From the NCBI GenBank assembly GCA_964349065.1, contig CAYGEY010000002.1, forward strand, positions 907 to 64,906: a DNA stretch of 64,000 nt, given 5' to 3'. The stretch is from an uncultured Candidatus Peribacteria bacterium. Its GTDB lineage: Bacteria; Patescibacteriota; Gracilibacteria; 1-14-2-50-48-13. A model generated the notes under the pieces. It was not told the origin of the DNA. It did no database searches and saw only the letters and a program-made list of their open reading frames with translations. The translations under genes were made by a program, and so were the position numbers. Shown piece by piece: positions 24,672 to 58,229 of the stretch (within the stretch, counting starts at the first letter, position 1; the number at the start of each line of letters is the position of its first letter).

Positions 24672-26084
24672 TTACAAAATATCAAGCACTTTTTCTTTTT
24701 CTTCATCGGCATAGATCTTCTCAAATGACCTACGCGATTTATTCAAATCATTGTTAGCCTTTTGCTTTTCTGACATAAGTGATTCAAACATTATTTTTGT
24801 TGAATCAATCACATTTTCCTTTGTTAACCGTTTACCATTGTGCCATGCATCTATCTGAATAACGGCTCCATTTGGTGCTATATTTGATAATGTCTGAAAA
24901 ACAACCTTCATTTCAATTTCGACACCATGCAAGTTTTTATACTGATCTACAATATCTGAAAGATACCCGAGAGAAACCTGCAACTGCATCAATAGGTTTT
25001 TTTCTCGCGCTCCATACTCTTTGTCATGATGCGTTGCCGCAGAAAAAAGAGTATGGAAACTATCACGGTCTTCCGACTTCTCAGGATTTAATTGTAAATA
25101 ATGTAATACAGCACTTATGTGCTCCAACACACTTCTCTCTTCATGTGGATTATCATGCAGAACACGCCTCTTCATGGACTCGATTATGATTCGGAGAGTA
25201 TCTTCATAATTTTCAGTATTTTTTTCCTGACTCTGTTTACTTTGATGAAGTTTTTCTAAACACTGCTTGATATTTGAAAACTCAGTTAAAAATGTTTCAT
25301 ATTCATCGTTTGTAATCGGTAACATATCCTGTAGTGTTTGGTGCAGTGCATCAAGATTTTGTATTTGTTCAACGATAGTCAGTCCTTCATCTAAGATGCC
25401 ATATGCCTCTGCCGCACTTACAATATTGAAGAAATCTTTTGACTTTTGCACTTCATTCTCAAAATTTCTCATGCTGATGTCATGGACAAATTGTGACATT
25501 TGTTTTTCCGTGTTTTTTTCATAGTATTTTGATTCTTGTAATACTTCCTTTTTAAAAAGCTGTTCCATCAATGTATTACTATTAAGCAAATGACGATTCA
25601 GTATGTGGGCGAGAAACTCAGCTTCGGTCAGAACATTTTTTTCAATTTCATGGGAAAACTGATCTTGTACATACTGAACAAACAAGTCACCCGAAACATC
25701 CTTTTTTTCTTTTGCCTTCGCAAGCGTAAATTTTAAAAATGGAAGAATAATATTTACCTGTCCGCCTAATGCATTTTGAATACCTTGAATCATGATCATC
25801 GCTTTTTCTTCTTTATGTACATCCACAGACCGGCTATCTGTAAAAAATTCAGTAATGGCCTCTTGCTTCTTTTTATGGTCAGCACGCAGGAAGTTATTCT
25901 GCCTTTGGCGCATAAGTTGTAGAGTTTCTTCTACTTCTTTTATTGGCGTTCCGTATGTTGTCGTACGCCCAGGTGCAAGCGGATTAAAACTTGAAATGGG
26001 GGTTTTTCCAAAAAGGACAAGTTCGTGTTGCTCTGGCTTTTCAAGGCAATGTTGCGAGAGATCCATAGTGTTTGAAATAAACAT
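24672..26084 (-). CDS. hypothetical protein (helical, charged)
   Basis: 470-aa ORF. No motif recognised. Confidence 0.55.
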   Translation of the reverse strand: MFISNTMDLSQHCLEKPEQHELVLFGKTPISSFNPLAPGRTTTYGTPIKEVEETLQLMRQRQNNFLRADHKKKQEAITEFFTDSRSVDVHKEEKAMIMIQGIQNALGGQVNIILPFLKFTLAKAKEKKDVSGDLFVQYVQDQFSHEIEKNVLTEAEFLAHILNRHLLNSNTLMEQLFKKEVLQESKYYEKNTEKQMSQFVHDISMRNFENEVQKSKDFFNIVSAAEAYGILDEGLTIVEQIQNLDALHQTLQDMLPITNDEYETFLTEFSNIKQCLEKLHQSKQSQEKNTENYEDTLRIIIESMKRRVLHDNPHEERSVLEHISAVLHYLQLNPEKSEDRDSFHTLFSAATHHDKEYGAREKNLLMQLQVSLGYLSDIVDQYKNLHGVEIEMKVVFQTLSNIAPNGAVIQIDAWHNGKRLTKENVIDSTKIMFESLMSEKQKANNDLNKSRRSFEKIYADEEKEKVLDIL

Positions 26085-29309: not shown

Positions 29310-29909
29310 TTATCTATCACGATGGTGAGCTACGTTGGGGTTCCTGTCTCCAATCGGATGCTCACCGTTCTTATTTTTCCTGTTCTTTCCCCCACGAAAT
29401 CCGTAATTCATGATCTTGCGTAAATCACTAACATAAAAAAAGTAGTGGGCATATTTCCTGATCAGTGAAGAATATCCTCTCTTGTTGGGGATTCCAATTT
29501 TGAATAATTTATTATGCTTATCAAGATATTCATAGAGACAATAAAAATCCCCGTCACCGGAAATAATAACCGCTTTTTCGTAATTATTCAATTCAATCAT
29601 AGTTTGCAAAACAAGTTCTGCATCGCAGTTCCCCTTCACTATTCCATCACGTTCAAGAGTTGGTTTATAAATGAGTTCATAGCCATTTTCTGTGAGTGAT
29701 TTGTACATTGGTTCATTCCCCTCCACAAATCCTATGAAAAGAAATGCCTTTTCTACATTAAATTTTTCTTTGAGATACACCCGGAGTTTGCGAAAATCAA
29801 GCTTCCAACCGAGAGCATTAATCGCAAGATTAAGATTTTGACTATCTATGAATGCATAGTTATTATGTGGCTTTTTTGGCTTTATTTTTTGAAAGAATTT
29901 TTTGATCAT
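29310..29909 (-). CDS. NYN-domain (LabA/PIN-like) predicted RNase
   Basis: 199 aa. AFIDSQNLNLA ... VIISGDGDFYCLYEYL, then a basic C-terminal tail. Confidence 0.7.
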   Translation of the reverse strand: MIKKFFQKIKPKKPHNNYAFIDSQNLNLAINALGWKLDFRKLRVYLKEKFNVEKAFLFIGFVEGNEPMYKSLTENGYELIYKPTLERDGIVKGNCDAELVLQTMIELNNYEKAVIISGDGDFYCLYEYLDKHNKLFKIGIPNKRGYSSLIRKYAHYFFYVSDLRKIMNYGFRGGKNRKNKNGEHPIGDRNPNVAHHRDR

Positions 29910-29914
29910 AATTG

Positions 29915-30175
29915 TTAATAAATTATCGTCCCACGATTTGAACTACTTGAACTTGTCCCAGTCCCCTGACTCCCAAAATTAATTATAAACATCAATGCCA
30001 AAAGCAGAAAAAAAATCCCGGCCATCAGTTGAACAAAGTACATCCACTTGGAAAACGGACGTAGGGCAGACACGCCTTGCATCTGTTTTTTCAGAAGTAA
30101 GTTGATCACCGCAAATGTTACCGCTGCGATGATCCATACTATTATAAGAAGAATTTGTGTTATTGTCGGTGTCAT
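29915..30175 (-). CDS. small membrane protein (2 TM)
   Basis: 86 aa. The start overlaps the ileS stop by 4 nt (ATGA-type coupling). Confidence 0.45.
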   Translation of the reverse strand: MTPTITQILLIIVWIIAAVTFAVINLLLKKQMQGVSALRPFSKWMYFVQLMAGIFFLLLALMFIINFGSQGTGTSSSSSNRGTIIY

Positions 30176-33100
30176 GCGTTTTTGGATACAGTTTCAATCC
30201 CAACTATACACTCTCCGTCAAAGAGAGAAAGCGTTTTTGTGAGCTTCGGCATATCACCGCTATATGAGAGATCAAGGGCGAGAGTCTCCTTGCGAATATA
30301 ATCCCCCCATTCCTCAAGCATCTTGGTCAGCTCCTGTGCAATATTTCCGGAAATTAAAATGGTGATATTGTCTGTCACTGCAAGATCATTGTCTTTACGT
30401 AAATCCTGGATTTCACGCACCAGATCCCTTGCGGCACCTTCACGAATGAGTAATTCGTCAATTGTCGTATCAAGTGCAACAACAATCCCGGCCATACTCT
30501 GCGCAGAAACTCCTTCGTGACTTTCGTACCCGACTTCTACCTCGTGTGGTTCTAAAATCATTCCCATGATTTCAATGGATCCATCATCTTTGAGTATAAA
30601 ATTCCCAGCTCTTGCCTCTTTAATAACCTCCTGCACCTTGCCTCCGAGCCTCGGCCCAAGCACCTTAGCATCCGGCTTCGCCACCGGTTTTCCAAGTTGT
30701 TCCGGATCTTTTTCAAACCGGATTTCTTTCACATTAAGCTCCTCTAAAATTACCTCTTTGTATTTTTCCAGCTGTGTAATTTTCAAAGATTTCGGCAGAG
30801 CAATTTGTGCTAAGCGTAGTGGCATTCGCACCTTTATTTTTTCTTTTGAACGGATGGCAAGCCCAAGTTGCACAATAGCTCGAACTGCATTTACTTCTTT
30901 AATAAGATTTTCATCAAACCAATTATTTTTATTGGTATCAAAGTAGGAAAGATGCACAGACTCAGCATTTGGAACGAGATTCATGTACATTTCCTCAGTA
31001 ATGAAAGGAGTGATTGGAGCCAGGAGTTGGCAAAACCGGATTAATACCTCGTGAAGCGTTGAATACGCATTATTTTTATCAGTATCATTTTCACTCTTCC
31101 AAAATCTGCGACGAGAGCGACGGATATACCAGTTGGTCATCGCATCCATACTCGCAAGCAGGATATCTGTCACACCTTTGAGATCATATTTTTCCATTGC
31201 CTCGTGGTAGAGCCTCTCCGTGTTTTCCATTTCAGAGAGCATCCAGAGATCAAGATTGTGCGAAATATTAGTTAAATCTTTTGATTCAATATCCCAATTA
31301 TCAACATTGGCATACGTCATAAAAAACGTGTACGAATGCCAGAGCGGAAGGATCATTTTTCGGAGAGTTTCTTCGACGCCTTTTTTACTGAAACGTAAGT
31401 TTTCTCCATGGACGACAGGTGAGTTCATGAGGTAAAACCTGAGGCTATCTGCTCCAAGTTCAGTAAAAATCTCAGAAGGATCAGGATAGTTTTTGAGCCG
31501 TTTGGACATTTTTTTCCCATCCTCAGCTAATACTAGGCCGTTCACCACAACATTTTTAAATGCAGGATTATCTTGACCAAGTCCTGATGCACCGTCTGTT
31601 AATGCGGTTGCGAGCACCATCAATGTATAAAACCAGCCCCTTGTCTGATCAGCTCCTTCGGCAATGAAATCTGCCGGAAAATTTTTCCTGGTTTTTTCAA
31701 GATTTTCAAATGGATAATGATTTTGTGCATACGGCATAGAACCTGATTCAAACCAACAATCAAAAACCTCCGGAACACGGTACATCAATTCACCTTTTTC
31801 TGAAGTGAGCGTTATCCCATCCACAAAGTGTTTGTGAAGATCAAATTCTTTTCCGGAGAGACTATCAAGAAATAAGGTTTTTGCTGAGCCGGTTTCGAGC
31901 TCATTGATGGTCGACATTTTTTCAGGAGATTTATTCCGAAGTACGTATTCCACCACTTGGAGAACAGCGGCATGGGAAACTATGTATACCGTTTTTCCTG
32001 CATGGTTTTCTTTTATGTCTTTCAATAAAGAAGTCAGGCGTTTTGCAATATCTTCATAACTTTCACTTCCTGTTGTTCTTTTTCCGGAAAAATATTCTTT
32101 TGACCCGCTTAGCTTTTCGTATACATCTATTTTAGAAAGCACTTCTTCCGTGTCCAATTTCTTACCTTCCCAATCACCTCCGTTCATTTCTATAAGACCA
32201 CCATCTATTTTTATTTCAATAGTTCCACCAAAAAATTTCTCCACAGCTTGAGCGGTCTCACGTGCTCTGAGAATGGGAGAAGAATATATCACATCCGGGC
32301 GTTCCTCAACATATTTCATTAATGTATCAGAAACCTGTTTTTTGCCTTTTTCGGTGAGGTGATGTTTATCAATTTCTGATGACCAAATATTAGTAACGTT
32401 CTTTTCAGATTCGCCATGTCGTAATAAAACTATCTTCGTGAGACGACCTTTTGCTTCATGATATAGTTCATCAAGCCCTGCAATTACCTTCATTTCTAAT
32501 CCGTCTTTCGTGCGCCAGATCGGCAATGGAGTTCCCCAAAACCTGTTTCGGGAAATCGCCCAATCTCGGACATTTTCTAACCACTTCCCAAATCTGCCGT
32601 CCTTCATGTGATCCGGTACCCAATGCACTTTTGCATTATTTGCGATGAGTTTTTCTTTGAGCTCTGTCACTCGTACAAACCATGTTTCGATAGGTTTGTA
32701 GATTAAAGGGGTGTCTGTTCTCCAACAATGAGGGTAGCTGTGCATGATGGTTTCTTGCTTCACTAAAGATCCATCATTTTTTAGACGTTCGATAATCGGT
32801 TTATTCGCATCAAACACGAGCATATTTTCAAAGTCTTTCACCTCATGAGTAAATGTCCCGTCATCCTGGATGGGATCCATGATCTCGATCCCTTTTTCAT
32901 TGATAACACGGAAGTCATCTTCACCATATGGGGCTAAATGTACAATCCCTGTACCATCTCCTTCTGTGACGAAATCAGCTAGGACAGTCTGGAAGGCACC
33001 TTCCTCAGCTTTATGTGCAAAGTATGGAAAAATCGGAGTGTATTTCAAATTGGCAAGATCTGAACCATGAAAAGTTGTAAGGATTTGGTATTGAGCTTCA

Positions 33101-33930
33101 TCCTTGTAATATTTTGATAGCGAAGATTTTGCCAAAACATATTGTTCATTTTTTTCAACATCCTTGATGAGAACATATTCCATTTTTTCTCCCAAAGCGA
33201 GCAAAAGGTTGGATGGAAGGGTCCACGGGGTTGTTGTCCATGCCAAAATATAAATAGGTTCACTATTTTCAAATCGAAAATTGGGCAAAAGAAACTTGAC
33301 TGTCACTGCCGGATCTTGCCTGTCTTGATAATTTTGTTGTGCTTCAAAATTAGAAAGCGGGGATGAAATACGGTAGGAAAAAGGCACTACTTTTTTACCA
33401 AGATAGACGAGATCCTTTTTCCAAAGCTCAGCAAACACCCACCAGATTGACTCCATAAACCATGGCTCCATAGTCTTATAATCGTCGTCCATATCCACAA
33501 ATCGACCCAGACGCTCAATCATTACTTTCCATTCATCAGCATATTTTAATATAGTTTGACGACAGCTTTCATTAAATCGATCTACACCGTATTCTTCGAT
33601 CTCAAGCCGAGATCCAAGTCCAAGTTCCTTTTCTTTTTCAAACTCGATAGGAAGACCATGGCAATCCCATCCCCAACGCCGATCCACGCGGTACCCGCGC
33701 ATTGTCCAATACCTCGGCACCATGTCCTTCATGACCGAGGCGAGGATATGACCATAATGAGGAAGCCCGGTCGCGAAAGGGGGTCCGTCGTAAAAAGTAT
33801 ATTCTTTGTCTGTGGATCTTGACGTGATAGATCTCCTAAAAATCTGCTCTTTTTTCCAAAAATCGAGAATACGTTCTTCTAATTTTGGAAAAGATTCTTT
33901 GGGGTTCGGTTTTTTGAAGTGGTGAGTCAT
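30172..33930 (-). CDS. ileS: isoleucyl-tRNA synthetase, type 2 (eukaryote-like), with nested histidine-phosphatase domain
   Basis: PPFATGLPHYGHIL (HIGH) and KMSKRLKNYPDP (KMSKS); FDCWFESGSMPYAQ and DQTRGWFYTL track the recalled human IARS1. ATG at 33930 (MTHHFKK) chosen; the track start at 33975 is TTG inside the leader. Confidence 0.95.
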   Translation of the reverse strand: MTHHFKKPNPKESFPKLEERILDFWKKEQIFRRSITSRSTDKEYTFYDGPPFATGLPHYGHILASVMKDMVPRYWTMRGYRVDRRWGWDCHGLPIEFEKEKELGLGSRLEIEEYGVDRFNESCRQTILKYADEWKVMIERLGRFVDMDDDYKTMEPWFMESIWWVFAELWKKDLVYLGKKVVPFSYRISSPLSNFEAQQNYQDRQDPAVTVKFLLPNFRFENSEPIYILAWTTTPWTLPSNLLLALGEKMEYVLIKDVEKNEQYVLAKSSLSKYYKDEAQYQILTTFHGSDLANLKYTPIFPYFAHKAEEGAFQTVLADFVTEGDGTGIVHLAPYGEDDFRVINEKGIEIMDPIQDDGTFTHEVKDFENMLVFDANKPIIERLKNDGSLVKQETIMHSYPHCWRTDTPLIYKPIETWFVRVTELKEKLIANNAKVHWVPDHMKDGRFGKWLENVRDWAISRNRFWGTPLPIWRTKDGLEMKVIAGLDELYHEAKGRLTKIVLLRHGESEKNVTNIWSSEIDKHHLTEKGKKQVSDTLMKYVEERPDVIYSSPILRARETAQAVEKFFGGTIEIKIDGGLIEMNGGDWEGKKLDTEEVLSKIDVYEKLSGSKEYFSGKRTTGSESYEDIAKRLTSLLKDIKENHAGKTVYIVSHAAVLQVVEYVLRNKSPEKMSTINELETGSAKTLFLDSLSGKEFDLHKHFVDGITLTSEKGELMYRVPEVFDCWFESGSMPYAQNHYPFENLEKTRKNFPADFIAEGADQTRGWFYTLMVLATALTDGASGLGQDNPAFKNVVVNGLVLAEDGKKMSKRLKNYPDPSEIFTELGADSLRFYLMNSPVVHGENLRFSKKGVEETLRKMILPLWHSYTFFMTYANVDNWDIESKDLTNISHNLDLWMLSEMENTERLYHEAMEKYDLKGVTDILLASMDAMTNWYIRRSRRRFWKSENDTDKNNAYSTLHEVLIRFCQLLAPITPFITEEMYMNLVPNAESVHLSYFDTNKNNWFDENLIKEVNAVRAIVQLGLAIRSKEKIKVRMPLRLAQIALPKSLKITQLEKYKEVILEELNVKEIRFEKDPEQLGKPVAKPDAKVLGPRLGGKVQEVIKEARAGNFILKDDGSIEIMGMILEPHEVEVGYESHEGVSAQSMAGIVVALDTTIDELLIREGAARDLVREIQDLRKDNDLAVTDNITILISGNIAQELTKMLEEWGDYIRKETLALDLSYSGDMPKLTKTLSLFDGECIVGIETVSKNA
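31852..32445 (-). other. inserted histidine phosphatase (phosphoglycerate-mutase-like) domain within IleRS (track residues 511-708)
   Basis: KIVLLRHGESEKN (RHG catalytic His), SSPILRARETA, GGDWEG and YIVSHAAVL (second His). It lies between IleRS segments ..LDELYHEAKG and KEFDLHKHFVDG, which are adjacent in canonical type 2 IleRS. Confidence 0.8.
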
Positions 33931-34103
33931 GGTAAACAAAAAATGCAGAATAAAATATTTCTGCAATCGGCCCAAAAAATTTGGGAGGTACCACCGAGAG
34001 CTATACTTGATTTGGTTTGAGGAGTCTACTGGGATTTTGGCCCTTTCTTTCCTCTACGCTTCACTCATGTGAAATCCCGTTGATAGCGGGTTGGCGTATT
34101 TGA
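33931..34103 (-). promoter_or_regulatory. T-box riboswitch leader of ileS (Ile specifier AUC, ultrashort stem I type)
   Basis: Minus strand, in order. Promoter TTCAAT-17-TATAAT (34110..34138). Hairpin CCCG-CUAUCAA-CGGG with AUC+A in the loop (AUC at 34082..34084). Stem with GAA/AGUA internal loops. T-box core UCGG-UGGUACCU-CCCAAA-UUU-UUUGGG-CCGA (GGUGGUACC at 33987..33995). Hairpin UGCAGAA..UUCUGCA plus U6 (33938..33965). Confidence 0.7.
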
Positions 34104-34261: not shown

Positions 34262-35038
34262 CTACTTCCACTCCGCACTTTTTACACCTCTTCCCTGAGG
34301 CAGAACCTCAATCACATACATCACATTGGCAAATTCTTCTCCAACCAATGGACACACCTTCATCACCACGCACGTCGTCAGATATCTCCTCTCATTGATC
34401 ACCTTTTTATCTTTGTCTAAAAATATCAAATCAAGTGGCATTATCATATCCTGCATATGAAAAGGATGCTTTCCCACCTCATCAAATGTAAAAAGCATAC
34501 CTGTTCCGTCTGCGAGGCTTTCTCGATATGACAATCCCTGTTTCCTTTTTTCCGGAGAATTTGCCACCTCCAACGCAAACTCTTTTTTCTCGCCATTTTC
34601 GAATGTGAGCAAGACTTTCTGCAAATCATACACAAATGGTGCCTTCATTTTCTGGCTTAAAGTTTTTTTGTATTCATCGAGTTTATCATAAAATCCAAGA
34701 CAATCTTTCATTAGTGTTGCATCCACATATTTACAAACGTTCTTATCCATGAACGCTCCATACAATAATTTTGTACATTCCTCACCCTTCACTTTATCAC
34801 CTCCTGTTTCACATAACTTGATGTTTTTTGCATTGTATGCGGAGTCAGCCAACTGCATCACATCCATGGTTCTTGTATTTCTAATGTTCTGGTATGCAAA
34901 AAACGCCGCAACAGAAAGCGCGATCAAAAGGAGGAAGAAACTAATTCGTTTTGTGGTGGAGTTCATAGATTTGAGAAAGGTTTGTACACATACTTTAGAA
35001 TAAAGAATCTTTGTGTGCAAGGTATGAACCTCTACCAT
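34262..35038 (-). CDS. DUF192 domain protein with N-terminal membrane anchor
   Basis: GLSYRESLADGTGMLFTF..HPFHMQDMIMPLDLIFLDKDKKVI is DUF192-like. The likely start is MNSTTKRISFF at 34966. Confidence 0.7.
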   Translation of the reverse strand: MVEVHTLHTKILYSKVCVQTFLKSMNSTTKRISFFLLLIALSVAAFFAYQNIRNTRTMDVMQLADSAYNAKNIKLCETGGDKVKGEECTKLLYGAFMDKNVCKYVDATLMKDCLGFYDKLDEYKKTLSQKMKAPFVYDLQKVLLTFENGEKKEFALEVANSPEKRKQGLSYRESLADGTGMLFTFDEVGKHPFHMQDMIMPLDLIFLDKDKKVINERRYLTTCVVMKVCPLVGEEFANVMYVIEVLPQGRGVKSAEWK

Positions 35039-35151: not shown

Positions 35152-35766
35152 ATGAAAAAATACAAGACAATGGTTTATGTAGATGGATTTAATTTGTATT
35201 ATGGTGTGCTCAAAGGTACACCTTACAAGTGGCTTAATATTGATGCTCTTGTAAAAAATTTACTGACAAATAATGAGATTATTGGGATTAAGTATTTTAC
35301 TGCGCCTGTGACCGATAGAAGAAGACTCAAGAACCAAAAAATATATATTTGTGCATTACAAACAATGATTCCATATTTTGAATGTATATTTGGTTATTTT
35401 CAAGAAAAGCGTTCTGACATGCGACATCTAAATCCACCCCCGAACAAAGTTCAAGTACTTGTTTCAGAAGAAAAAGGGACAGATGTTAATATTGCAGTTG
35501 AAATTGTAAACGATATTCATACTAAAGATTTTGACAGTGTTCTATTAATTTCAAATGATGGAGATTTAGAAAGATCTTTAAACATTGCAAAACAAAAAGG
35601 GAAAAAGATTATTCTAATTTCACCATTAATGAATAAAAAAGCTCGTCCAGCACATAAATTAGTAAAAATTGCTGACCATGTCTATTTCCTAAAAATACCA
35701 AATATATTAAAAAAATCATTATTACCAAAATCAGTAGGAATTTATACCTGTCCATCGCATTGGTAA
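35152..35766 (+). CDS. NYN-domain predicted RNase (second copy)
   Basis: 204 aa. MVYVDGFNLYYG, EKGTDVNIAVE, LISNDGDLE. Confidence 0.7.
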   Translation: MKKYKTMVYVDGFNLYYGVLKGTPYKWLNIDALVKNLLTNNEIIGIKYFTAPVTDRRRLKNQKIYICALQTMIPYFECIFGYFQEKRSDMRHLNPPPNKVQVLVSEEKGTDVNIAVEIVNDIHTKDFDSVLLISNDGDLERSLNIAKQKGKKIILISPLMNKKARPAHKLVKIADHVYFLKIPNILKKSLLPKSVGIYTCPSHW

Positions 35767-38226: not shown

Positions 38227-38859
38227 TTACGATTCCATTCTTTCCAAAATCATTTTAATTTCTTCCATGATTTCAAGGTCACTTTCAAGTTCATCCATAG
38301 TGAGCGTGCAATCGCGTTTACTTTTAAAGTTGAGTTTGAGTGAATGGTCTGAAGGCCAAATCCAGACTACACCAGAAATATCATCAGTACACATTTCTGG
38401 AGCCTTATCAGGAAGGTATGTCAGAAAGAAATTGAAGTTACGACATTCTAAAACATCATAATTTCCACACCCTCCATTAAAGTTAAATCCAGAACAAATT
38501 CGTTTCCTCACATCTAGAGAGTCTAATGAGGAAAGAAGTGCAACTTTTGACACAATTGTGGCTATTTGCATGCCTGTATTGAACACCCTACTAAAACTTA
38601 TTTTAGAGGGGATGTAATCCCCCTCATCAATTGCAATTTTACCGTTCATTCTTGATAAAACATCCGAGAAGAAGTTGGGATATTCGAAGTCATTGTATTC
38701 AAAAACAAGCTTACAAGTGTCATCATTAAAACTAAAAGTATAATGATTTGATAACCCACTATTTTTACCAAATAGATCTTCTATAAGCTCCTGAGAAACT
38801 CCTCTGGGTAACTTGACTCCCTTATAGACGATTAATTTCCGGACAGCTATGGTATCCAT
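38227..38859 (-). CDS. hypothetical protein
   Basis: 210-aa ORF with its own terminator. No motif recognised. Confidence 0.5.
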   Translation of the reverse strand: MDTIAVRKLIVYKGVKLPRGVSQELIEDLFGKNSGLSNHYTFSFNDDTCKLVFEYNDFEYPNFFSDVLSRMNGKIAIDEGDYIPSKISFSRVFNTGMQIATIVSKVALLSSLDSLDVRKRICSGFNFNGGCGNYDVLECRNFNFFLTYLPDKAPEMCTDDISGVVWIWPSDHSLKLNFKSKRDCTLTMDELESDLEIMEEIKMILERMES

Positions 38860-39000: not shown

Positions 39001-40398
39001 ATGGACGTCTCAATGGATACCATCATCAATCTCTGCAAAGGTCGCGGCTTTATCTTCCAAGGCTCCGAGATTTACGGTGGGATGGCGTCCACGTATGATT
39101 ACGGACCCCTCGGTGTAGAGCTCAAAAACAACGTCAAACAAGCATGGTGGCGAACATTTGTGCAAAATCGGGAGGACATGGTCGGACAAGATGCTGCGAT
39201 ATTAATGAACCCGCGTGCGTGGGAGGCGTCGGGGCATGTGGGTGGATTTTCGGATCCATTGATGGATTGTAAGGAATGTAAAAATAGATGGAGAGCTGAC
39301 AAACTCATCGAAGAATATCTTGAAAAAAATGTAGCCGACGCAGATCGCGTCATTGGTTGGCCGACTGAAAAAACCCCTTTCTCAGAAATGGAAGGATTTA
39401 TTAAAGATAAAAAAATCGCTTGCCCAAATTGCAAAGCAACAAATTTTACAGAAATCCGTACATTTAATTTAATGTTCAAGACATTTCAAGGTGTGGTGGA
39501 AGATAGCACAAGTATCGTCTATTTAAGGCCAGAAACGGCCCAAGGAATCTTTGTTGATTTCAAAGCGATTTTGAATTCTTCACGCAAAAAAATCCCGTTC
39601 GGGATTGCTCAAATTGGAAAAGCTTTCCGAAATGAAATCACTCCGGGAAATTTTACTTTCCGCACCCGGGAGTTCGAGCAAATGGAGATCGAGTACTTTG
39701 TTTCGCCTGAGGATTGGAAGCCTTCGTTTGAGGAGTGGCAAAAAGCGATTCATGCATTCGCACTTAGTTGCGGACTTGATCCAGAAAAGCTCCGGTTCCG
39801 TGAACATGCCAAGGATGAGCTTTCACACTATTCATCCCAAACTGTTGATATAGAATACAAATTCCCATTTGGGTGGGGAGAGTTATGGGGCCTCGCCTAC
39901 AGAGGAGACTTTGATCTTTCTCAACATCAGAAATTTAGCGGTGAAGACCTTTCATATTTTGATCAGGAACATAATAAAAAATACATACCTCATGTCATTG
40001 AGCCTTCGGTCGGCGCTGATCGCCTCTCACTTGCCATTTTACTTTCATGTTATACTGAAGAAACGGTTGGAGATGAAACTCGAGTGGTCTTAAAATTTCC
40101 GAAAAATTTAGCGCCGTACAAAGTTGCCGTATTACCGCTTGTGAACAAACTGGAAGACAAGGCGAAAGAAGTATACGAGAGTATAAAACGAGAATTCCAC
40201 ACTGAGTTTGACCGCTCCGGAAGCATCGGTAAACGATACAGACGGCAAGATGAAATAGGGACGCCGTATTGCGTGACCATAGATTTTGAAACCCTTGAGG
40301 ATGGTGCCGTTACTGTGCGAGATCGGGATAGTATGGAACAGGAACGTGTAAAGTTATCTGAATTGAAATCTTATTTGGCAGGTAAACTTGCTTCGTAG
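39001..40398 (+). CDS. glyQS: glycyl-tRNA synthetase (dimeric class II type)
   Basis: 465 aa. RGFIFQGSEIYGG, FRNEITPGNFTFRTREFEQMEIEYF, VIEPSVGADRL. Confidence 0.92.
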   Translation: MDVSMDTIINLCKGRGFIFQGSEIYGGMASTYDYGPLGVELKNNVKQAWWRTFVQNREDMVGQDAAILMNPRAWEASGHVGGFSDPLMDCKECKNRWRADKLIEEYLEKNVADADRVIGWPTEKTPFSEMEGFIKDKKIACPNCKATNFTEIRTFNLMFKTFQGVVEDSTSIVYLRPETAQGIFVDFKAILNSSRKKIPFGIAQIGKAFRNEITPGNFTFRTREFEQMEIEYFVSPEDWKPSFEEWQKAIHAFALSCGLDPEKLRFREHAKDELSHYSSQTVDIEYKFPFGWGELWGLAYRGDFDLSQHQKFSGEDLSYFDQEHNKKYIPHVIEPSVGADRLSLAILLSCYTEETVGDETRVVLKFPKNLAPYKVAVLPLVNKLEDKAKEVYESIKREFHTEFDRSGSIGKRYRRQDEIGTPYCVTIDFETLEDGAVTVRDRDSMEQERVKLSELKSYLAGKLAS

Positions 40399-58153: not shown

Positions 58154-58229
58154 GCGGGTATAGTTCAATTGGCTAGAATTACTGCCTTCCAAGCAGTCTA
58201 TATGGGTTCGAGTCCCATTACCCGCTCCA
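58154..58229 (+). tRNA. tRNA-Gly (anticodon UCC), CCA encoded
   Basis: Hand-folded cloverleaf. Acceptor GCGGGTA/TACCCGC, D arm GTTC/GAAT, anticodon arm ACTGC-CTTCCAA-GCAGT, T arm ATGGG-TTCGAGT-CCCAT, discriminator U, then CCA. Candidate promoter TTGCGT-16-TAAAAT at 58108..58135. Confidence 0.95.

Follow-up and report, generated by a model that had tools for sequence, protein, structure and literature searches.

The window examined here, a stretch of 64,000 nucleotides from contig CAYGEY010000002.1 of an uncultured Candidatus Peribacteria bacterium (GenBank assembly GCA_964349065.1), carries on its reverse strand an ileS gene for a type-2 (eukaryote-like) isoleucyl-tRNA synthetase (IleRS) in which a whole histidine phosphatase (HP) domain is nested within the catalytic body. 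Judged by profile scores and predicted fold, the nested domain is a complete branch-1 histidine phosphatase, generic and PhoE/PspA/CobC/ARPP-like, and not a phosphoglycerate mutase. The nested architecture is, to go by its distribution among related proteins, an old lineage trait of Gracilibacteria/Peribacteria-type Patescibacteria (candidate phyla radiation, CPR).

The synthetase and the domain nested in it

The open reading frame (ORF) runs uninterrupted across 30172..33975 (-), being open back to a TTG at 33975 (1267 aa), and residue numbers throughout are counted from this upstream TTG, not from the ATG at 33930. That ATG (MTHHFKKPNPKESFP...) is likely the true start of ileS; homologues and the database gene call begin there, the 1252-aa product is identical to database protein P0121, and the 15 additional codons between 33930 and 33975 are probably not translated. 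Because TGA ends 7 of the 47 long ORFs in the window, the standard genetic code is in use. The whole protein passed the ileS equivalog model TIGR00392 (913.8 bits against a cutoff of 621.4), and its Pfam matches were tRNA-synt_1, His_Phos_1 (E = 1.2e-33), Anticodon_1 and DUF5915. The synthetase motifs were intact, as the initial annotation had held (Table 1): H58, Y59 and G60 of the HIGH signature in alignment A1 were invariant in 69 relatives, and the CP1 editing motifs in the same alignment were invariant or nearly so. By these motifs and scores the synthetase is a complete, bona fide type-2 IleRS. Neither a second ileS nor a second HP gene was found within the 64-kb window.

Once its 198 aa are removed, the flanks of the insert can be aligned gaplessly with human IARS1 (9w01_B, ...AELEELSGAKISDLHRESVDHLTIPS...) and equally with Candida IleRS (6ldk) and yeast IleRS (7d5c); measured against canonical type-2 IleRS, the domain is therefore an insertion. 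In the alignment the insertion point corresponds roughly to yeast residue 493-497, midway through CP3, and the spacer from WxISRxRxWG to DxWFESG is 257 aa here versus 59-61 aa in the canonical type-2 enzymes. The initial annotation had placed about 198 in-frame residues between segments that are contiguous in type-2 enzymes, with human IARS1 as a comparison; its coordinates proved exact and the comparison with IARS1 was confirmed. The Pfam comparison that it proposed assigned the insert alone to His_Phos_1 (E = 4.1e-35; 121.6 bits against a cutoff of 21.7; profile positions 1-169 of 194). The insert has a GC content of 0.37-0.40 and its flanks one of 0.40-0.45; the drift across the insert, from about 0.42 to about 0.38, makes no sharp compositional break. 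An intein, of which the initial annotation had already seen no hallmarks, is excluded because the junctions (...AKG/RLTK and ...LSG/KEFD, thus G/R and G/K) lack Cys, Ser or Thr and His-Asn and because the Pfam scan of the protein returned no Hint/intein domain.

CP3, which receives the insert, is a small, peripheral and structurally variable element. In yeast IleRS, which comprises among other parts a catalytic domain, a CP core, CP1, CP2 (420-458) and CP3 (459-526), the CP2-3 linker 453-ARDWNVSRNRYWG-465 forms part of the pocket for the tRNA 3' end (A76) and for reveromycin A (PMC7955072). The CP3 of Candida IleRS is a small beta-beta-alpha-alpha element opposite CP2, and its topology varies among the Candida, Thermus (Zn knuckle) and Staphylococcus enzymes (PMC7191050); for the yeast IleRS-tRNA complex, contact between CP3 and tRNA is not reported (PMC11685878). 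CP3 is anchored N-terminally by the CP2-3 linker, at the A76 pocket, and C-terminally by the DxWFESG strand, at the adenylate site. By alignment, two CxxC pairs, like the Zn-knuckle of Thermus IleRS CP3, are retained on either side of the insert in P0123-P0130; the protein of the window has lost all four CP3 cysteines and reads RTKDGLE and TLTSEKGE.

A structure prediction, also proposed in the initial annotation, yielded a confident AlphaFold2 (AF2) model spanning residues 16-1073 and built with a 69-sequence alignment (predicted local distance difference test, pLDDT, 90.5; predicted template modelling score, pTM, 0.87), in which the insert and both linkers scored 87-97. The N-terminal half of CP3 was modelled as strands 471-474 and 480-482 and a helix at 486-492, and a Foldseek search matched the model to the IleRS structures 7d5c, 8c8v and 1ile at TMt 0.72-0.92.

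Table 1. Features of the ileS gene and its product; residues are counted from the TTG at 33975.
Feature	Residues (aa)	Coordinates	Strand	Basis or remark
ileS gene: type-2 (eukaryote-like) IleRS with nested phosphatase		30172..33930	(-)	1252 aa from ATG 33930
HIGH signature, reads HYGH	73-76	33748..33759	(-)	Direct reading
CP1 editing motifs WTTTPWT and GTGIVH	246-252; 341-346	32938..33240	(-)	Direct reading
CP2-CP3 linker WAISRNRFWG	472-481	32533..32562	(-)	Matches yeast linker
CP3, N-terminal half (...PIWRTKDGLEMKVIAGLDELYHEAKG)	485-510	32446..32523	(-)	Alignment to yeast IleRS
Nested His_Phos_1 domain, insertion site S1 (RLTKIVLLRHGESEKN...LDSLSG)	511-708	31852..32445	(-)	Pfam
Arg519-His520, RHG motif; His520 predicted phospho-accepting nucleophile	519-520	32416..32421	(-)	Sequence
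Arg570 (SPILRARETA), second phosphate-binding Arg	570	32266..32268	(-)	Sequence
Glu596 (LIEMNGGDWEG), predicted general acid	596	32188..32190	(-)	Aligned to PspA IEIDHGMW segment
His668 (IVSHAAV), second catalytic His	668	31972..31974	(-)	Sequence
CP3, C-terminal half, with DLHKHFVD (31819-31842) between S1 and S2	709-739	31759..31851	(-)	Alignment
DCWFESG motif, Rossmann fold resumes	739-745	31741..31761	(-)	Invariant D724-G730 in A1
KMSKS signature, reads KMSKR	822-826	31498..31512	(-)	Direct reading
Anticodon-binding domain	909-1055	30811..31251	(-)	Pfam Anticodon_1, E = 1.9e-28
C-terminal DUF5915, typical of type-2 IleRS	1074-1261	30193..30756	(-)	Pfam, E = 8.9e-35

Catalytic signature and family of the phosphatase

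The full branch-1 catalytic signature read by the initial annotation was recovered, and the predicted catalytic residues are Arg519, His520, Asn526, Arg570, Glu596 and His668. Conservation was counted over 92 nested HP domains, 44 at insertion site S1, 40 at S2 and 8 at S3 (sites defined below). The nucleophile His, the second Arg and the second His were each present in 92/92, the RHG Arg in 91 (one Lys) and the Glu in 91 (one Asp); signs of loss of function were absent from this set. Sequence around these residues diverges fast: identity to the nearest relative is 39% for the HP domain versus 68% for the IleRS core (means 31% versus 52%), and the cap region of the HP domain is unconserved. 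Catalytic residues kept amid such divergence would be the signature of a working catalytic centre in loosely constrained surroundings, and the phosphatase is apparently active.

A non-catalytic module, acting as a phosphometabolite sensor that tunes IleRS allosterically or as a stand-in for the Zn-knuckle by which CP3 is stabilised in other type-2 IleRS, has some points in its favour, since phosphate-binding residues would be conserved in a sensor too, the high pLDDT at the junctions of the model suggests a rigid unit, and the flanking CxxC pairs retained in P0123-P0130 are those that the protein of the window has lost. Pseudo-enzymes, however, usually lose one or more of the nucleophile His, the Glu and the second His; about 92 of 92 domains have all three, as would befit catalysis more than binding alone. 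We regard a non-catalytic role as quite improbable.

By sequence, the best solved relatives of the domain were PspA (4ij5, E = 4e-14), PhoE/YhfR, CobC and the N-terminal halves of bisphosphoglycerate-dependent phosphoglycerate mutases (dPGMs). An AF2 model of the domain alone (pLDDT 92.8) was matched by Foldseek to 9mmh, 4ij6, 4pz9, 6e4b, 6nru and 1h2e, all of about 200 aa, at TMt 0.77-0.81 with a root-mean-square deviation (rmsd) of about 3 Å, whereas dPGMs gave TMt 0.6-0.7 and rmsd 6-10 Å. The dPGM models all scored below cutoff: TIGR01258 (pgm_1) gave 40.8 bits against 81.7 and aligned only residues 4-68, dPGM_arch NF038349 gave 88.8 against 225, and other gpmA models gave 20-48 against 300-420. 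A dPGM identity, implied by names assigned at JGI, was rejected on these cutoffs and fold scores. Scores also fell below cutoff for PspA (73.7 against 350), CobC TIGR03162 (81.5 against 162.9) and SixA TIGR00249 (40.9 against 74.5), and because no curated equivalog cutoff was reached, a substrate is not transferable from PspA, CobC or dPGM. The nested domains are not basic (mean pI 7.0, 6.4 and 5.9), so that a strongly RNA-binding domain is unsupported at a pI of about 6-7 and the evidence leans mildly against a tight RNA-binding role. PADLOC returned no match to the HP domain.

Relatives, insertion sites and genomic setting

Among the 120 best IleRS matches of the whole-protein search, within which relatives were counted, 69 carried a nested PF00300 domain (41-63% identical to the protein of the window, 1193-1485 aa). 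These proteins stand on independently assembled contigs of up to 1.62 Mb (others, of 1.04 and 1.17 Mb, encode P0195 and P0228), and their database names include Candidatus Gracilibacteria and Peribacteraceae. JGI calls some members 'isoleucyl-tRNA synthetase/bisphosphoglycerate-dependent phosphoglycerate mutase' and one relative SixA. Querying with the insert and its flanks retrieved, in addition, about 25 fragments with both PF00133 and PF00300 (93-100% query coverage, 31-42% identity), several of them named 'Patescibacteria group bacterium'. A scan of one genome per species with a single narrow pattern, for which the species count is a lower bound, showed, among the matches listed, nested forms in metagenome-assembled genomes (MAGs) labelled Gracilibacteria CG17, Peribacteria, Altimarinota and Magasanikbacteria; matches in Treponema and Nitrosomonas were free-standing proteins of about 250 aa. 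Two loci of MAGs labelled 'Saccharibacteria' (L004) and 'uncultured Gammaproteobacteria' (L005) encode an HP-nested IleRS 37-41% identical to that of the window, and both MAGs are probably mislabelled or misbinned.

The survey of related MAGs suggested in the initial annotation thus placed the insert in dozens of independent assemblies, rather than in this contig alone; given also the strong His_Phos_1 match and the absence of signs of lost function, the refuting conditions named in that annotation all failed. The organism is uncultured and the insert is a little poorer in GC than the sequence on either side, two points in favour of an artefact, be it a chimera of the assembly, an intein or mobile element that went unrecognised, or a gene in decay. 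Against these stand more than 69 relatives, the lack of any stop, frameshift or Hint domain, intact motifs and a confident AF2 model, and an artefact of any of these kinds is exceedingly improbable. A chimera in particular was rejected because the same in-frame architecture, together with its synteny, recurs in independent assemblies, including megabase contigs, down to 41% identity.

The initial annotation had missed several insertion sites and the variation in copy number. At least four sites are used and a protein may contain 1-4 HP copies: S1, the site of the window, lies before the conserved DLHKHxVD in CP3; S2 lies 14 residues beyond S1 in CP3, after DLHKHxVD; S3 lies in TYAxIDxW.P[...]LDxWIxSE, a loop where the anticodon-binding domain starts; and S4 follows HYPFxN. 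In the protein of the window the loop TYANVDNW...LDLWMLSE, just upstream of the anticodon-binding domain, is the empty counterpart of S3. HP-bearing spacers between WxISRxRxWG and DxWFESG measure either 234-281 or about 443-450 residues, and S1 and S2 are occupied together in some proteins. Site use in the top 120 IleRS was none in 51, S2 only in 25, S1 only in 21, S1 with S2 in 15 and S1 with S3 in 8. Higher copy numbers occur in P0246 (three HP domains, at S2, S4 and S3) and P0241 (four), and unrelated enzyme domains accompany an HP in P0308, with a Ser_hydrolase (PF06821, alpha/beta-hydrolase) at S4 and HP at S3, and in P0335, with a GNAT before the CP1 T-rich motif and HP at S1. Insertion of enzyme domains seems to have a hot spot in the IleRS of the nested-HP clade. 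By class-Ia topology, S3 would be expected to lie far from the active site.

In a rough neighbour-joining tree of insert-masked IleRS cores, S1 occupancy fell in three clades (that of the window, one with S1 and S3, and one with S1 and S2), and the nesting of S1-only members within the last of these implies loss of the S2 domain; S2-only enzymes were interspersed among insert-free ones of the Peregrinibacteria type. Identity among clades is 30-34% for S1-type domains, which share only 22-28% with S2- or S3-type domains. In HMM cross-scores, the S1 and S2 types were about as close to each other as each was to its nearest free-standing HPs, which would fit one old capture followed by duplication as well as two separate captures.

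A phmmer search of the domain against 1.84 billion representatives returned 10,707 matches at E <= 1e-3, 606 of them at E <= 1e-10. The best 150 domain relatives comprised about 38 IleRS pieces, about 32 tandem HP-HP proteins (about 410 aa) and about 78 single-domain proteins (about 200 aa), and no other aminoacyl-tRNA synthetase (aaRS) or other host protein with an HP was found among them. The free-standing tandem HP-HP family (P0249, P0251, P0257 and others; P0390-P0508) is mainly cyanobacterial, about 410-450 aa long, and often named phosphoserine phosphatase or PhoE.

The gene order around the HP-bearing ileS is conserved, with PNPase upstream, then DUF192, then ileS, and SecA downstream. 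The order PNPase ... DUF192 - ileS ... SecA recurs on the 1.62 Mb contig of GCA_046314355.1, which encodes P0124, and the closest named relative (L001, Gracilibacteria CG17) shares the local synteny and has a SecA 68% identical. As for a shared functional partner, only PNPase, DUF192 and SecA are held in common in the closest relatives, and nothing is common to the more distant loci. The DUF192 gene (COG1430) directly upstream of ileS occupies 34262-35038 (-) in the window, and counterparts stand beside ileS in L001 (2929-3795), L080 (6762-7487) and L081 (344-1069). Genes for NYN-domain (LabA-like nuclease) proteins at 29310-29909 (-) and 35152-35766 (+) bracket the DUF192-ileS pair; the upstream one matches the PADLOC candidate defence family HEC-09 (E = 3e-34), and L001 has no counterpart to either. 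Elsewhere in the window, ORFs at 24672-26084 (-) (470 aa) and 38227-38859 (-) (210 aa) had no Pfam match at E <= 1e-3, and the sole tRNA gene is tRNA-Gly(TCC) at 58154-58229 (+). A class II aaRS at 39001-40398 (+) (tRNA-synt_2b and HGTP_anticodon, 465 aa) is of ordinary size with no added domain, and therefore the insertion is not general to the synthetases of this organism.

Candidate roles and significance

We tentatively favour, at somewhat short of an even chance, the reading that the HP domain is an autonomous phosphomonoesterase carried by IleRS, over a role coupled to tRNA or a nucleotide. The IleRS core would charge tRNA-Ile and edit as usual, probably as the housekeeping IleRS, while the HP module would hydrolyse a phosphomonoester by way of phosphorylated His520, Glu596 being the general acid, and would take no part in the chemistry of aminoacylation or editing. 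Its substrate may be a soluble phosphoester of low molecular weight, of the phosphoserine, sugar-phosphate or nucleoside-phosphate kind. IleRS would then serve mainly as a permissive, constitutively expressed scaffold, an instance of gene sharing in a reduced genome that was widened by intragenic duplication. Autonomy is favoured because the HP domains sit at four or more surface sites in 1-4 copies, because unrelated enzymes (Ser_hydrolase, GNAT) are also inserted in relatives, and because the domains are non-basic and fast-evolving with an unconserved cap. The variability of CP3 and its location opposite CP2, without reported tRNA contact (PMC7191050, PMC11685878), argue in the same direction, as does the nature of the nearest free-standing relatives, namely generic phosphatases some 200 aa long and tandem 'phosphoserine phosphatase' proteins of cyanobacterial type.

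Several observations weigh against autonomy. Every multidomain host among the best 150 domain relatives is an IleRS, insertions are always internal and never terminal, and the high linker pLDDT with a pTM of 0.87 suggests, in the model, rigid docking over a loose tether. The two CP3 sites, 14 residues apart, hold distinct domain types, which could mean repeated selection for a link between HP and IleRS, something that would not be predicted if the HP were purely a passenger. CPR cells, furthermore, run a limited intermediary metabolism with little call for phosphatases of this sort.

Most of these points lend themselves to the alternative that the HP domain is coupled to the synthetase and dephosphorylates something that IleRS binds. 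[quoted passage not shown] Coupling would accord with the anchoring of CP3 at the A76-pocket linker and the adenylate-site DxWFESG strand, with the restriction of nested HPs to IleRS among multidomain relatives, with the distinct domain types at the adjacent sites S1 and S2, and with the invariably internal placement and apparently rigid docking in the model. The structural neighbours 9mmh and CobC act on 5'-phospho-ribityl or ribosyl heterocycles, and the second-best NCBIfam match, NF005567 (an RNase H/acid-phosphatase fusion), is a precedent for joining an HP to a nucleic-acid enzyme. As a rule, a catalytic domain joined to a bacterial aaRS acts on aminoacyl-tRNA or related ligands. Coupling is, however, opposed by the acidic to neutral character of the domains, the poor conservation of their cap and surface, the S3 and S4 copies at other surface loops, and the position of CP3 opposite CP2 with no reported contact with tRNA (PMC7191050, PMC11685878). 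To our knowledge, moreover, no member of the HP superfamily acts as a tRNA-end phosphatase. On balance we consider a coupled role unlikely.

A third explanation is that the HP, GNAT and hydrolase inserts protect IleRS as an 'armoured target', inactivating an inhibitor of the enzyme or reversing its inhibitory phosphorylation by a HipA/HipT-like kinase toxin. IleRS is a classic natural-product target, the type-2 enzyme is the mupirocin-resistant form, and the mupirocin-resistance models MupA and MupB were the next-best NCBIfam models, both below cutoff (693 and 710 against 1900). Phosphatase, acetyltransferase and serine hydrolase are typical drug-modifying activities, one relative bears the name SixA, and SixA, PGAM5 and Sts-1 of the HP superfamily are protein phosphatases. 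Yet the SixA model TIGR00249 scored well short of its cutoff (40.9 against 74.5 bits), the GNAT and hydrolase inserts each occur in a single representative, PADLOC gave no match and the conserved neighbourhood contains no kinase or toxin, and we know of no IleRS inhibitor with a phosphomonoester. Protection of this kind is improbable. Framed more broadly as an accessory activity of the aaRS, be it 'healing' of tRNA-Ile ends for charging by removal of blocking 2'/3'-(pyro)phosphates or self-defence together with the GNAT and hydrolase inserts, a function for the nested HPs is rather unlikely. The proposal that the domain substitutes for a pyrophosphatase is weakened, since the relative on the 1.62 Mb contig has an ordinary PF00719 pyrophosphatase about 8 kb from ileS.

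The protein resembles other type-2 IleRS (Priestia megaterium IleRS2, 8C8V; Thermus thermophilus, 1ILE; yeast, 7D5C/8WND) in domain order, motifs, editing domain and DUF5915, and unlike the canonical members has a whole enzyme domain inserted in CP3. That domain shares its fold, length of about 200 aa, catalytic set and GxWEG and GES motifs with PhoE/YhfR (1H2E), the phosphoserine phosphatase PspA (4IJ5), the alpha-ribazole phosphatase CobC (6E4B/6NRU), GpgP (4PZ9) and a riboflavin-pathway HP (9MMH), yet these short HPs are free-standing whereas the present one is nested in another enzyme and scores below the equivalog cutoffs. The RNase H/acid phosphatase of the Rv2228c type (NF005567) likewise joins a CobC/PhoE-like HP to a nucleic-acid enzyme, but is an end-to-end fusion with another partner, and the 86 bits obtained here lie far below its cutoff of 326. 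A precedent for an internal extra enzyme domain in IleRS is offered by NF040702 ('ileS_w_GNAT'); the protein of the window, by contrast, lacks the GNAT, whose site lies before the CP1 T-rich motif, and scored 295 against a cutoff of 1999. In IleRS, ValRS and LeuRS the classical example of a hydrolase set within the Rossmann fold is the CP1 editing domain. CP1 is universal in these enzymes and acts on mischarged tRNA, whereas the HP insert is lineage-specific and of unrelated fold, with at most a putative link to tRNA.

No description of a phosphatase nested in any aaRS was found in the literature, papers on CPR metabolism included, with subscription-only literature lying outside the search. 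The initial annotation was not aware of an aaRS with an internal phosphatase, and it had missed that in sequence collections the architecture is clade-wide and already deposited. Both families are well known. Public databases already contain the fused proteins, but the names given to them there say little or mislead ('class I tRNA ligase family protein', 'histidine phosphatase family protein', 'IleRS/bisphosphoglycerate-dependent phosphoglycerate mutase'), and metabolic reconstructions may wrongly count a nested-HP ileS as a phosphoglycerate mutase.

The aaRS are among the most conserved enzymes, and only very rarely has their core gained a catalytic domain, as in the textbook example of the editing domains; specialists would find an active-looking phosphoesterase in IleRS surprising, and 1-4 copies at four sites more so. 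If the domain were coupled to the synthetase, the maintenance of tRNA or of synthetases would gain a new layer, or target self-protection a new form, and were an accessory activity the true reading, this would be the first aaRS with a phosphoesterase integrated in its catalytic body. If the HP is instead an autonomous passenger, nested-HP IleRS would offer protein engineers a natural map of permissive sites and would be a striking case of shared genes and of an essential enzyme that tolerates inserted domains. On either reading, a whole clade of ultra-small, host-dependent bacteria carries 1-4 apparently active phosphatases in the surface loops of its IleRS.

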